Shown: positions 18,927-23,382, counted from the first letter of the stretch. The stretch: 64,000 nt of DNA from Eubacteriales bacterium (GCA_028702135.1 JAQVPJ010000001.1:94334-158333); one strand, 5' to 3'. Made by a program: numbers and translations. The notes: generated from the letters alone by a model not told the origin.

Positions 18927-18955
18927 TTGACAATTTATACAAATGTCATTATAAT
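18927..18955 (+). promoter_or_regulatory. consensus sigma-A promoter driving the long leader of the fusion-gene operon
   Basis: TTGACA 18927-18932, 17-nt spacer, TATAAT 18950-18955. Confidence 0.7.
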
Positions 18956-18961
18956 CGAACT

Positions 18962-19300
18962 ATCTTAAAAAAAGCATTGAAGGGGAATAAGCATTTGCAG
19001 TTTTGCGCTTTAAGAGAGTCGCCGGTCGGTGCGAGGCGATACGCAGGCATTTCGCGAGCTCGCCCCGGAGCTGTCCGCTGAACACAAGAATCGCATTTTG
19101 TTATGTGATTTGTTGCAAGTAGGCGAGAACGGGTTTCTCACCGTTATCAAAGAGGCGATGTTGACTGACATTGTAACATATGATAATACGACGATACCTT
19201 TTACGGCTCATATTATGCTTAGCAACTTTAAGTATATTTGAACCGGTTTTTTATACTTAATTCAAATTCCCGCTTTCGGTGGTTTTCACCCTCAAGGAAA
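18962..19300 (+). ncRNA. T-box-like 5' leader with a non-canonical 3' part
   Basis: AGAGA at 19013-19017. Helix GUCGCC/GGCGAU encloses GGUCGGUGCGA, which carries the distal-loop GGUGNRA motif. GAA-CAC-A at 19080-19086. AGUAGG at 19118-19123. F-box CCGUUA at 19141-19146. No GGGUGGNACCGCG and no GC-rich terminator were found. Confidence 0.5.
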
Positions 19301-19314
19301 GGTTGGTTATATTT

Positions 19315-21855
19315 ATGAAAATTGCTTTTTCCACATTGGCGTGTCCGGATTTCAGCTTTCCGGAGATATACTCAATGGCGACAGACCTCGGTTTTGACGG
19401 CATTGAGGTCAGAGGCCTGGGCCTTGATATTTTTGACGGAAGGACGCTCCCGTTCTCTGAAAATCAACTACCGCAAACAGTAAAGAAGCTGAAATCCCTG
19501 AATCTTGAGATATCCTGCCTTTCCTCCGGATGCTGCTTGAAATATGCAGATAAGGCGGAAACGAACATTTCCGAAATAAAGAAGTATATAAAGCTTGCAG
19601 GCGTGCTTGGAACTAAGTATATAAGGATTCTCGGCGACCTTAATCCCGCGCCTTCCGATGATGAACAGCCGGTGGACGATGATGTCGTTTATTCACAGCT
19701 CTCGGAGCTTATACCATTTGCGGAACAGAATAATGTAACCCTGCTTGTAGAAACGAACGGGGTTTACAGCGATACGGGACGCCTCAAGGAACTGCTTGAC
19801 CGTCTTAAAAGCGATTATGTCGGCGCGCTCTGGGATGTTCACCATCCTTACAGGTATAAAAACGAAACTCCCGAAAAAACTGTTCAGAATCTCGGTATGT
19901 ATATACGTTATGTGCATGTAAAAGACAGTGTTGTGGTTGACGGTAAGGTAAAATACCGCCTTATGGGCGAGGGCGACCTGCCTGTTTCCGAAATGATTGC
20001 AGCTTTGGCTTCAATTAATTATGTCGGCTATTTGTCGCTCGAATGGGTTAAAAGATGGGCTCCAGATCTTGAGGACGCCGGAATCGTTTTCCCACATTAT
20101 GTAAACTTTATGTCCAAATACACCGGCAAAGGACAATATTCGGGGACTCTCATAAGCAATATGAGGGGCGACGGAAAATATATATGGGAAAAGAACCTGC
20201 TTATCGACCTCACATTTCCTCAGGTACTTGACCGGGTATGCGAGGCTTTTCCGAATCAATATGCTTTCAGATATACCACCTGCGACTACACCCGTACTTA
20301 TGTACAGTTCCGCGACGATGTGGACCGCTTCGCACGCGCTTTGATTTCCATCGGTGTAAAAAGAGGGGATCATGTGGCAATCTGGGCGACAAACGTACCC
20401 GAATGGTTCATAACCTTTTGGGCGACTACAAAGATCGGTGCGGTTTTGGTTACGGTCAACACCGCTTATAAAATTTACGAAGCGGAATACCTTTTGCGCC
20501 AGTCCGATACCCATACCCTCGTTATGATAGACGGTTATAAGGACAGCGATTATGTTTCTATTATTAAAGAACTCTGCCCTGAGCTTGAAAATACAGAGCC
20601 GGGAAAACCTCTGTATTCAAAGCGTTTACCGTTTCTGCGCAATATAATTACCGTAACCAGCAAGCAAAAAGGATGCTTAACCTGGGATGAGGCGATGGAA
20701 TATGCCGAAAAAACCCCGATTGAGGAGGTTCACCGCAGGGCTGCTTCCATAGGTAAATTCGATGTCTGCAATATGCAGTATACCTCCGGAACTACCGGAT
20801 TTCCGAAGGGTGTTATGCTCACGCATTACAATGTAGTAAACAACGGCAAATCCATAGGCGATGGTATGGATTTAAGCACTGCCGACAGAATGATGATTCA
20901 GGTGCCGATGTTCCATTGCTTTGGAATGGTGCTTTCCATGACGGCGTGTATGACACACGGTACGACTATGTCGCCAATACCGTATTTCAGAACTAAGGAT
21001 TCGCTCGAATGTATAAACAAGGAAAAGATAACTGCGTTCAACGGTGTTCCAACAATGTTTATCGCAATGATGGAGCATGAGGATTTTGAAAAGACAGATT
21101 TTTCTCACATAAGGACCGGCATAATGGCAGGCTCTCCCTGCCCCGTCAAGGTAATGCAGGATGTTGTCGATAAGATGAATATGACTGAAATCACTATAGT
21201 TTACGGACAGACCGAATCCTCTCCCGGTGATACTATGAGCACAACTACCGACAGCGTAGAGGTTCGGGTAAACACAGTAGGAAAAGCGATGTTCGGGGTG
21301 GAGTGCAGGATAGTCGATCCCGAAACGGGGAAGGTTCTGCCCGACAACACAGACGGCGAGCTTGTTGCAAGAGGATATAATATTATGAAAGGCTATTATA
21401 AAATGCCCCAGGCAACGGCAAACGCAATCGATGCCGATGGCTGGCTCCACACCGGGGATCTTGCGCGCAGGGACGAAAACGGTTATTATAAGATTACCGG
21501 CAGGATAAAGGATATGATAATCCGCGGAGGCGAGAACATTTATCCAAAGGAGATAGAGGATTTTATATACACGCATCCAAAGGTAAGAGATGTTCAGGTT
21601 ATAGGCGTTCCCGACAAACAATACGGCGAGGAGATTATGGCCTGTGTCATTCTGAGGGAAGGACAGACGATGACAGAGGACGAACTCAAGGATTATGTCC
21701 GCACTCATATGGCAAAGCATAAAACTCCGCGTTATGTTGATTTTGTAGCCGAGTTCCCCATGAATGCGGCGGGTAAAATACTGAAGTATAAAATGCGTGA
21801 AAACGCCGTTGAAAAGTTAGGTTTGCAGACGGAGAGCAAAATAGTTACCGCTTAG
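19315..21855 (+). CDS. fusion protein: N-terminal sugar-phosphate isomerase/epimerase-type TIM barrel, C-terminal AMP-forming acyl-CoA ligase
   Basis: Track ORF starts at GTG 19279; I prefer ATG 19315 (MKIAFSTLACPDF). TIM-barrel motifs: LVETN, WDVHH, VHVKD, SLEW. Ligase motifs: YTSGTTGFPKGV, GWLHTGD, RGGENIYPKEIE, GKILK. Confidence 0.8.
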   Translation: MKIAFSTLACPDFSFPEIYSMATDLGFDGIEVRGLGLDIFDGRTLPFSENQLPQTVKKLKSLNLEISCLSSGCCLKYADKAETNISEIKKYIKLAGVLGTKYIRILGDLNPAPSDDEQPVDDDVVYSQLSELIPFAEQNNVTLLVETNGVYSDTGRLKELLDRLKSDYVGALWDVHHPYRYKNETPEKTVQNLGMYIRYVHVKDSVVVDGKVKYRLMGEGDLPVSEMIAALASINYVGYLSLEWVKRWAPDLEDAGIVFPHYVNFMSKYTGKGQYSGTLISNMRGDGKYIWEKNLLIDLTFPQVLDRVCEAFPNQYAFRYTTCDYTRTYVQFRDDVDRFARALISIGVKRGDHVAIWATNVPEWFITFWATTKIGAVLVTVNTAYKIYEAEYLLRQSDTHTLVMIDGYKDSDYVSIIKELCPELENTEPGKPLYSKRLPFLRNIITVTSKQKGCLTWDEAMEYAEKTPIEEVHRRAASIGKFDVCNMQYTSGTTGFPKGVMLTHYNVVNNGKSIGDGMDLSTADRMMIQVPMFHCFGMVLSMTACMTHGTTMSPIPYFRTKDSLECINKEKITAFNGVPTMFIAMMEHEDFEKTDFSHIRTGIMAGSPCPVKVMQDVVDKMNMTEITIVYGQTESSPGDTMSTTTDSVEVRVNTVGKAMFGVECRIVDPETGKVLPDNTDGELVARGYNIMKGYYKMPQATANAIDADGWLHTGDLARRDENGYYKITGRIKDMIIRGGENIYPKEIEDFIYTHPKVRDVQVIGVPDKQYGEEIMACVILREGQTMTEDELKDYVRTHMAKHKTPRYVDFVAEFPMNAAGKILKYKMRENAVEKLGLQTESKIVTA

Positions 21856-21915
21856 AAAAATCGGAGAGGATTTTGCTTTAAAACTTTGATTGATGAATAG
21901 TGATAGGGTGATGTA

Positions 21916-22848
21916 ATGAAGATTCTAATCATAAACGGGCCGAATTTGAACCTGCTCGGTCTGAGAGAACCTGCTGTTTACGGCAGCAGAACATATTCGG
22001 ATTTATGCACTTTCATCGGGGATGTGTGCGTAGAGCATAATATTGAGTATAAGCTGTTTCAATCTAACAGTGAGAGCGCTATTATTGATGAGATTCAAGC
22101 TGCATACGGCGTTTTTGACGGTATTGTCATCAATCCTGCGGCTTATACTCATACGAGTATCGCCATTCCCGACGCTATCAAAGCGGTTGGAGTTCCGGCG
22201 ATAGAGGTACATATTTCTAATATATACGAAAGAGAGGAGTACAGGCATCGGTCCTTTACCTCTCAGGCCTGTATCACAACGATCTATGGGCTTGGTTTCG
22301 ATGGTTACAAAAATGCGCTTATTTTACTGAAGGATTATTTGACAAAGGGCATAAAGCCCGAACAGGGAAAAGCGCCGGACGGCAGGAAAATTGCCGGATT
22401 TTTAAAAGTGAGCAGGCAGAATTACCAGCCTGCAGAGCATTACGGGGATATAAAGCTTCCGCTAAGAGCGACTGAAGGTTCCGCTGGTTATGATTTTTTC
22501 GCACCTTATGACATAGCGCTTGAACCGCACCAGACGGTTACTGTTCCCACGGGTATCCGTGCAAGGATAGACAAAGGCTGGGTGTTGATGATTTTTCCAC
22601 GCTCCGGGCTTGGATTCAAGTACCGTCTTATGCTTAACAATACAGTCGGCATAATTGATTCGGATTATTTTTATTCCGATAACGAAGGCCATATTTTTAT
22701 TCGTTTTACCAATGGTGACTCTCCTCTTTGCATAAGAAAAGGCGATGCTTTCGCTCAGGGTGTTTTCGTTCCGTATGGTATAACGTCGGATGACTGCACC
22801 GATGCGGTCCGCAACGGCGGCTTCGGGAGTACAGATATAAAAAAGTAA
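21916..22848 (+). CDS. fusion protein: type II 3-dehydroquinate dehydratase (N-terminal) and trimeric dUTPase (C-terminal)
   Basis: 310 aa. N-terminal part: MKILIINGPNLNLLGLREPAVYG, NPAAYTHTSIAIPDA, EVHISN. C-terminal part: AGYD, PRSG, GIIDSDY, KGDAFAQ, GGFGST. Confidence 0.8.
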   Translation: MKILIINGPNLNLLGLREPAVYGSRTYSDLCTFIGDVCVEHNIEYKLFQSNSESAIIDEIQAAYGVFDGIVINPAAYTHTSIAIPDAIKAVGVPAIEVHISNIYEREEYRHRSFTSQACITTIYGLGFDGYKNALILLKDYLTKGIKPEQGKAPDGRKIAGFLKVSRQNYQPAEHYGDIKLPLRATEGSAGYDFFAPYDIALEPHQTVTVPTGIRARIDKGWVLMIFPRSGLGFKYRLMLNNTVGIIDSDYFYSDNEGHIFIRFTNGDSPLCIRKGDAFAQGVFVPYGITSDDCTDAVRNGGFGSTDIKK

Positions 22849-22861
22849 ACGCTTACTATTA

Positions 22862-22891
22862 AAAAACGTCTGCTCGTTTGCAGACGTTTTT
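22862..22891. terminator. bidirectional rho-independent terminator
   Basis: AAAAACGTCTGC-tcgttt-GCAGACGTTTTT. Confidence 0.8.
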
Positions 22892-22905: not shown

Positions 22906-23382
22906 TTATGCCTGGATATCCAGTATACCTTCCTGCTTTTCACCGCTCAAAAATTTCCCGTATCGTTTTTTACCGGAGTTTCTGTCCTTTCCTTGATTAT
23001 CCTCATCCTGAGAATAATATTCAAAATAATCGTTGCTTACGGTGGACAATGCTATGAGTCTGCTGAAAATTCCGGACAAACCGGTAGTGCCGGTAACTAA
23101 GCTGCTTATTGGTTTTTCCGAGGAATCGATCAGCCTTTTGTAATAATCGGACTGGCTCAGTTTAAGGTTGCTTTTCGCATATGCAGCGACATTTCCGATA
23201 GCATAAAATTCGGTTGATACTGTTTTGTCCACAGCGTCGAAAGCACTTGCAAGGCTTGAAATATTATAGGAATCCTTTATTGCCGATACCGCACTTTTTT
23301 CGGTGCCCGGATCGCCTTTTGTGTTTTGGTACTCATATACCTTATAATAATATGACGCTTGATTTGAAACCGAAATGCCCAA
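22906..23382 (-). CDS. hypothetical protein
   Basis: 158 aa. TTG start with AAGGAGGG 8 nt upstream. No recognisable domain. Confidence 0.45.
   Translation of the reverse strand: MGISVSNQASYYYKVYEYQNTKGDPGTEKSAVSAIKDSYNISSLASAFDAVDKTVSTEFYAIGNVAAYAKSNLKLSQSDYYKRLIDSSEKPISSLVTGTTGLSGIFSRLIALSTVSNDYFEYYSQDEDNQGKDRNSGKKRYGKFLSGEKQEGILDIQA

Follow-up and report, generated by a model that had tools for sequence, protein, structure and literature searches.

In-frame fusion of a type II 3-dehydroquinate dehydratase and a divergent dUTPase in an Eubacteriales bacterium

Why would an enzyme of the shikimate pathway and an enzyme of dUTP sanitation be encoded as one polypeptide, and what does the union mean for either? 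The question is raised by an open reading frame in a 64,000-nucleotide stretch of DNA from an Eubacteriales bacterium (GCA_028702135.1 JAQVPJ010000001.1:94334-158333), a member of the Clostridia from a gut or digester; this whole stretch is called the window below. The frame (21916..22848, + strand) starts with ATG, encodes 310 aa and has no internal stops. A sequence-only reading had described it as an AroQ-type dehydroquinase joined in frame to a complete dUTPase, and matches to both Pfam families bear this description out. Three segments can be distinguished: an AroQ domain of residues 1-142 (21916..22341, + strand), a linker of residues 143-157 (TKGIKPEQGKAPDGR; 22342..22386, + strand) and a dUTPase of residues 158-310 (22387..22845, + strand). 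The G+C content is even across both halves. The window contains one aroQ and one dut, with no second copy of either, and no other aro genes and no nrdDG were found within its 64 kb.

The AroQ domain is delimited by profiles, PDB chains, a fold model and catalytic residues. The Pfam DHquinase_II model (PF01220) matches residues 2-136 with an E-value of 7.9e-54 and 181.6 bits (cut-off 23.3), spanning profile positions 1-135 of 138, and the NCBIfam aroQ model TIGR01088 scores 181.9 bits, which passes its trusted cut-off of 169.85. Residues 1-143 match type II dehydroquinases in the PDB with E-values down to 6.5e-40. The stand-alone enzymes of Butyrivibrio crossotus (6HS8) and M. tuberculosis (1H05/2DHQ) are matched over their full length, with 54% identity to 6HS8, and all the catalytic residues that were checked are shared. 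In an alignment of five fused proteins with identity down to 52%, residues N10, R17, Y22, N73, H79, D86, E97, H99, S101, R106 and R110 are invariant; their counterparts in M. tuberculosis AroQ, at a numbering offset of +2 taken from the 1h05 alignment range, are Asn12, Arg19, Tyr24, Asn75, His81, Asp88, Glu99, His101, Ser103, Arg108 and Arg112, which we take to be catalytic or substrate-binding. The fusion differs from the usual AroQ in having P85, instead of Arg or Leu, before the catalytic-site Asp, and from the stand-alone enzymes in its 168-aa C-terminal extension, which is made up of the linker and the dUTPase. In the AlphaFold2 model the pLDDT is about 90-99 across residues 1-140. When the AroQ domain of this model is compared by Foldseek with AroQ chains of the PDB, the target-normalised TM scores are 0.9-0.97 and the rmsd is 0.9-1.6 Å; the predicted fold of the N-terminal half, which superposes on the stand-alone enzymes at about 1 Å, is the flavodoxin-like fold of AroQ.

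The dUTPase part begins with a subfamily-specific N-terminal extension (residues 158-178), followed by a core with motifs I-V. The Pfam dUTPase model (PF00692) matches residues 179-305 (E 7.2e-19; 68.3 bits against a cut-off of 22), spanning profile positions 3-127 of 129. The NCBIfam dut equivalog and superfamily models score below their cut-offs (PRK13956, 98.8 against 223; TIGR00576, 89.4 against 102.55; PRK00601, 86 against 103), indicating a divergent dUTPase subfamily, so that membership is claimed at the level of the Pfam family only. A dCTP deaminase-like identity was considered and rejected, as the DCD model PF22769 scores 17.8 bits, under its cut-off of 27. The motifs AGYD (190-193), PRSG (228-231), GIIDSDY (245-251), AFAQ (278-281) and RNGGFGST (299-306) are matched in alignments with E. 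coli Dut and with Streptococcus mutans 3H6X. Among PDB matches of residues 178-306, 3h6x is the best (E 4.8e-23), followed by E. coli Dut (E 5.9e-17). Comparison with 3H6X gives the five motifs in common, plus a YS-DNEGH insertion after motif III; compared with E. coli Dut (1DUD), the fusion half has an N-terminal extension of ~21 aa which the E. coli enzyme lacks. Invariant in the fused set are AGYD 190-193, PRS 228-230, G245, D248, D250, Y251, A280-Q281, R299 and GGFGST 301-306, and these take in the catalytic Asp (motif III), the Tyr that discriminates for deoxyribose, and the Arg/Phe arm (motif V). The motif V arm, at the C-terminus, is a low-confidence region of the AlphaFold2 model, as is usual for dUTPases. 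All of the AroQ strings and all five dUTPase motifs singled out by the sequence-only reading are present in the frame. Judged by its residues and profiles, the C-terminal half is unmistakably a divergent dUTPase.

Stand-alone homologues of this half are found on the chromosomes of Clostridia as proteins of 153-176 aa, 60-82% identical, which start at the position of K158. They begin 'M(Q/K)(K/R)IA(Q/K)F.KVS' (for example 'MQKIAQFFKVS'), corresponding to K158-S166 of the fusion; the fused half, in contrast, has no start codon of its own and its N-terminus is tethered to AroQ. On chromosomal contigs the stand-alone genes of this subfamily lie directly after nrdG, and once after nrdD-nrdG, which marks the subfamily as a housekeeping dut.

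As the protein from K158 onward aligns to the N-terminus of the stand-alone dUTPases, the linker measures 15 aa. It had previously been put at ~35 aa; that figure has to be shortened to ~15 aa (T143-R157), since 'KIAGFLKVS...' from K158 is already the dUTPase N-terminus. AlphaFold2, run on an alignment of 88 sequences, returns two confident domains with block pLDDT mostly 88-99, and a pLDDT below 50 for residues 148-154; the linker is predicted to be disordered. The single-chain model has no confident inter-domain contact, and its pTM of 0.54 indicates that a fixed orientation of the two domains is not predicted. No single solved PDB chain with both AroQ and dUTPase domains was found. Among homologues the linker is variable and takes in-frame indels, the reading frame being kept. 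A hairpin followed by a T run (CGGCAGGAAAATTGCCG GATTTTT) is located inside the linker-coding stretch, at 22380-22396 (+ strand). It was considered as an attenuator and rejected: it is absent from the related locus L001, and the count of terminator-like sites equals the shuffle expectation. The hairpin is probably there by chance.

It is extremely improbable that the fusion is an assembly chimera or a sequencing error, or that the locus amounts in effect to two genes with an internal start for the dUTPase. An internal start finds some support in the NCBI annotation of assembly GCA_028704985.1, in which only a 152-aa 'dUTP diphosphatase' (MDD4163705.1) is called, from an ATT codon (I159), on identical DNA (L053 5527-6459), the AroQ gene being left unannotated. 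However, the DNA of that assembly agrees with the window at every base of the aligned stretch (21850-22860 of the window; 100% identity), with no stop or frameshift; another NCBI record (HBR30762.1) annotates the frame whole, at 310 aa, as 'type II 3-dehydroquinate dehydratase'; and the junction has no ATG, GTG or TTG behind a properly spaced Shine-Dalgarno sequence. The exact 310-aa protein occurs on 9 contigs (NCBI, ENA, Logan), and a one-residue linker variant, D155V, on 2 more. Fused homologues are found at 73%, 71%, 54%, 52% and 51% identity. In the 71%-identical homologue the frame survives a 3-nt indel in the linker, and at 71%, 54% and 52% it is kept despite saturated synonymous change and linker indels. 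The identical independent assembly, together with the frame kept in diverged homologues, rules out an assembly artefact or frameshift, and the earlier statement that the halves are joined without stop or frameshift holds in every independent assembly.

Codon analysis distinguishes the three segments further. Between the window and L001, pS is about 0.8, indicating that synonymous sites are saturated, and pN is 0.175 in AroQ, 0.109 in the dUTPase core and 0.375 in the linker. For L002 compared with L054, dN/dS (the ratio of the computed dN and dS values) is about 0.27 for AroQ, about 0.16 for the dUTPase and about 0.85 for the linker. The pN/pS values are 0.5-0.9 in the linker as against 0.14-0.43 in the domains. 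Both enzymes thus appear to be under purifying selection, with the linker near neutral.

The closest stand-alone AroQ proteins, 70-73% identical, are encoded at loci L057/58, L059/60 and L062. Their neighbourhood is also that of L001 and the window: first a GFO/IDH/MocA gene, on the opposite strand, and then the TIM-barrel/AMP-ligase gene, aroQ and dut. At these split loci, aroQ (145-150 aa) and its neighbour dut (153-155 aa) are two separate frames, in different phases, which overlap by 13-26 nt. In global alignment with the window's halves, the split pairs, all in MAGs of Clostridia (L057-L060, L062; e.g. GCA_003452915.1), are 69-71% identical in AroQ and 74-80% in the dUTPase, and the pairs lack the 15-aa linker present in the window; compared with L057 and L059, the window has ~40-45 nt extra, exactly at the site where the aroQ stop and the dut ATG overlap. 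In L057, an AAGGAG Shine-Dalgarno sequence for dut is found inside the 3' end of aroQ. The overlap in that locus (L057 6420-6445) reads TGC AAA AAA TAG against ATG CAA AAA ATA, with dut in the -1 frame; its A6 run, considered as a programmed -1 frameshift site that would give a fusion product, is absent from L059 and was rejected on that ground. In neighbour-joining trees of each half, fused proteins (window, P0002, P0003) and split ones (L057, L059) are interleaved in one clade, so that the junction appears evolutionarily labile and the covalent link close to neutral. In other species-representative genomes aroQ-dut adjacency is absent. It seems clear that the fusion derives from overlapping aroQ-dut neighbours, which are still split in the nearest relatives.

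A second clade of fused proteins (P0004, P0005, P0421 and P0288) has about 50% identity to the window in AroQ and about 60% in the dUTPase. In clade 2 the fusion closes a complete aromatic operon, which encodes DAHP synthase, prephenate dehydrogenase, DHQ synthase, EPSP synthase, chorismate synthase, chorismate mutase/prephenate dehydratase and shikimate dehydrogenase-kinase. The sole dehydroquinase of this operon is the fused gene, and this is the strongest indication that the AroQ half is the biosynthetic enzyme. In a Ruminococcaceae relative the same operon ends in an unfused aroQ; an Amidohydro_2 gene comes next, its frame overlapping that of aroQ, and dut is absent. Amidohydro_2 genes recur in the company of aroQ, as at L002 (1123-1929), L057 (7845-8654, - strand) and L061 (5429-6217). 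An Amidohydro_2 orthologue lies near the loci of both clades, with 59% identity between them, and this shared neighbour hints at one inherited neighbourhood, not two independent linkages.

One clade 2 protein, P0288 (L054-L056, 10001-11443), is longer still: its 480 aa comprise AroQ, dUTPase and an AAA_18 P-loop kinase. It is listed in 439 index blocks, indicating that it is abundant in metagenomes. Within its 90% cluster there are members that stop at 306 aa, the kinase (167 aa) being encoded separately. The P0288 gene is followed by a paralogous 163-aa kinase gene.

How rare the combination is can be judged from several searches. Among 5.8 billion proteins, both Pfam domains co-occur in only 8 clusters at 90% identity, all from the two clades. 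A phmmer search of 1.84 billion 50%-identity representatives gave no AroQ+dUTPase protein in the top 150 matches listed; where a hit matched in two stretches, it was either an AroQ-AroQ tandem or an internally duplicated dUTPase. A scan of GTDB species representatives with peptide patterns derived from the query found single-domain genes only, and the patterns are query-specific, so that distant fusions could be missed. The phmmer and GTDB scans contradict the idea of a common architecture, and full-text literature searches found no description of the fusion or of an aroQ-dut gene pair. Both enzymes are well known, and what is new is the domain architecture that combines them. The joining of adjacent or co-expressed enzymes in one chain is as such familiar: the fungal AROM protein, the plant DHQase-shikimate dehydrogenase, the bifunctional dCTP deaminase-dUTPase and the retroviral protease- or nucleocapsid-dUTPase fusions are examples, and the clostridial shikimate dehydrogenase-kinase, another such fusion, is present in the same clade 2 operons. 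All of these, however, combine members of one pathway or polyprotein, whereas the pathways joined here are unrelated. Rare dUTPase architectures were also seen among P0130, P0146, P0170, P0144, P0122 and P0123, with a coiled-coil, an unclassified domain or an HTH-like N-terminal region; the same set includes an AroQ with a C-terminal region that by eye is GNAT acetyltransferase-like, and tandem AroQ-AroQ proteins.

The fused gene lies, as had been noted before, after a TIM-barrel/ligase gene and behind a T-box-like leader. The gene (19279..21855, + strand) encodes an 858-aa protein with a xylose-isomerase-like TIM barrel and an AMP-binding acyl-CoA ligase, and precedes aroQ/dut in all clade 1 relatives. 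The ligase part is best matched by fatty-acid CoA ligase models, and the best NCBIfam model, PRK12583, scores 712 bits, which is under its cut-off; the matches of the TIM domain, to sugar epimerases and MJ1311, are all weak. The leader (18968..19188, + strand) matches RF00230 with 67.9 bits and an E-value of 1.2e-14 in a 551-nt search. This is below the gathering score of 93, so that no T-box is called at that threshold, and the 3' antiterminator part of the model is largely unmatched; the E-value nevertheless indicates a real resemblance, for which 'T-box-like' is a fair description. Read from the cmscan alignment, its specifier could be CUC (Leu), which would fit an isovalerate-type acyl-CoA ligase. 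Upstream, a sigma-70-type promoter (TTGACA-17-TATAAT; 18927..18955, + strand) has 12/12 consensus matches and is likely to be the start of the transcription unit; it comes from a consensus scan only, in which promoter-like sites overall are no commoner than in shuffles. A strong intrinsic terminator (22862..22891, + strand), with a 12-bp stem and then a T run, is located 14 nt past the stop codon; between the ligase gene and aroQ::dut the scan gave none. Given the promoter, the leader, the terminator at the end and none in between, the two genes look like one transcription unit. Convergent to it is a 158-aa frame (22906-23382, - strand) with no Pfam match; a frame of the same size is kept at the same spot in L001 and L053.

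We consider it likely that the product is a bifunctional enzyme with two independent activities, formed by the merging of an overlapping aroQ-dut pair and made tolerable by the flexibility of the linker and by three-fold symmetries that are compatible. The AroQ domain would convert 3-dehydroquinate to 3-dehydroshikimate, the third step of the shikimate pathway, and the dUTPase domain would hydrolyse dUTP, yielding dUMP and pyrophosphate; each active site would work independently of the other, with no common intermediate. In forming the fusion, translationally coupled and overlapping aroQ and dut would have lost the aroQ stop and the dut start and gained a short flexible linker. It would be tolerated because the linker is flexible. 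AroQ enzymes assemble as a tetramer of trimers, a dodecamer, and dUTPases as homotrimers, and the three-fold symmetry common to both families would also help.

It is also possible, but unlikely, that the association has been selected: whether fused or split, the two enzymes would form a complex in which dUTPase trimers are docked at the three-fold axes of the AroQ dodecamer. The outcome would be a stable 12-mer particle, or else a link, regulatory or moonlighting, of nucleotide sanitation with aromatic biosynthesis, and the fusion would hard-wire a complex that already exists. In its favour, the overlapping pair is kept across at least 5 clade 1 lineages, the genes are fused also in clade 2, at only about 50% identity and in a different operon, and one lineage adds a third, nucleotide-kinase domain; other Clostridia have dut by nrdG or nrdDG and not by aroQ, so that the pairing is specific to these lineages. 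Yet fused and split states interconvert among close relatives, suggesting a covalent link that is almost neutral; the linker lacks conservation, disorder is predicted for it, and no inter-domain contact is confidently modelled at a pTM of 0.54. The Amidohydro_2 orthologue near both clades' loci (59%) suggests that the pairing descends from one inherited neighbourhood, and we know of no biochemical link between the shikimate and dUTP pathways. The corresponding structural proposal is similarly doubtful: a tetrahedral AroQ dodecamer, its three-fold vertices capped by four dUTPase trimers, would form a symmetric particle, with a gain in, for example, stability, co-regulation or localisation.

The apparent transcription unit with the TIM/ligase gene allows a different function to be imagined, in which AroQ would serve a side pathway from dehydroquinate through dehydroshikimate and protocatechuate to a CoA or AMP ester, and not amino-acid biosynthesis. 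The TIM/ligase-aroQ synteny kept in clade 1 and the lack of any other aro gene in the 64-kb window are consistent with this, and the dehydroshikimate dehydratases AsbF and QuiC share the TIM-barrel fold. Sequence support for an AsbF/QuiC-type dehydratase that uses the AroQ product is nil, however, the TIM domain matching only epimerases and MJ1311, and weakly; the ligase fits best with fatty-acid CoA ligase models; and the AroQ orthologues of clade 2 and of the Ruminococcaceae relative are the biosynthetic enzymes of their aro operons. Such a pathway is very unlikely.

With the merged, bifunctional enzyme as the favoured reading, the fusion is real and rare and biologically modest: it opens no new mechanism and answers no long-standing question. 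For genome interpretation it has a practical side. Besides the two NCBI records, JGI labels one homologue 'dUTP pyrophosphatase'; automated annotation keeps the name of one half and drops the other, so that metabolic reconstructions of MAGs would be distorted and would seem to miss either the shikimate step or dut. As a union of two oligomeric enzymes with three-fold symmetry in common, the fused protein would lend itself well to the study of symmetry-matched natural assemblies and might serve as a scaffold in protein engineering; the symmetric particle, if true, would be nature's equivalent of designed two-component protein cages. The locus offers a clean and datable case of overlapping, translationally coupled genes merging into a multidomain protein, with split and fused states coexisting among close relatives.
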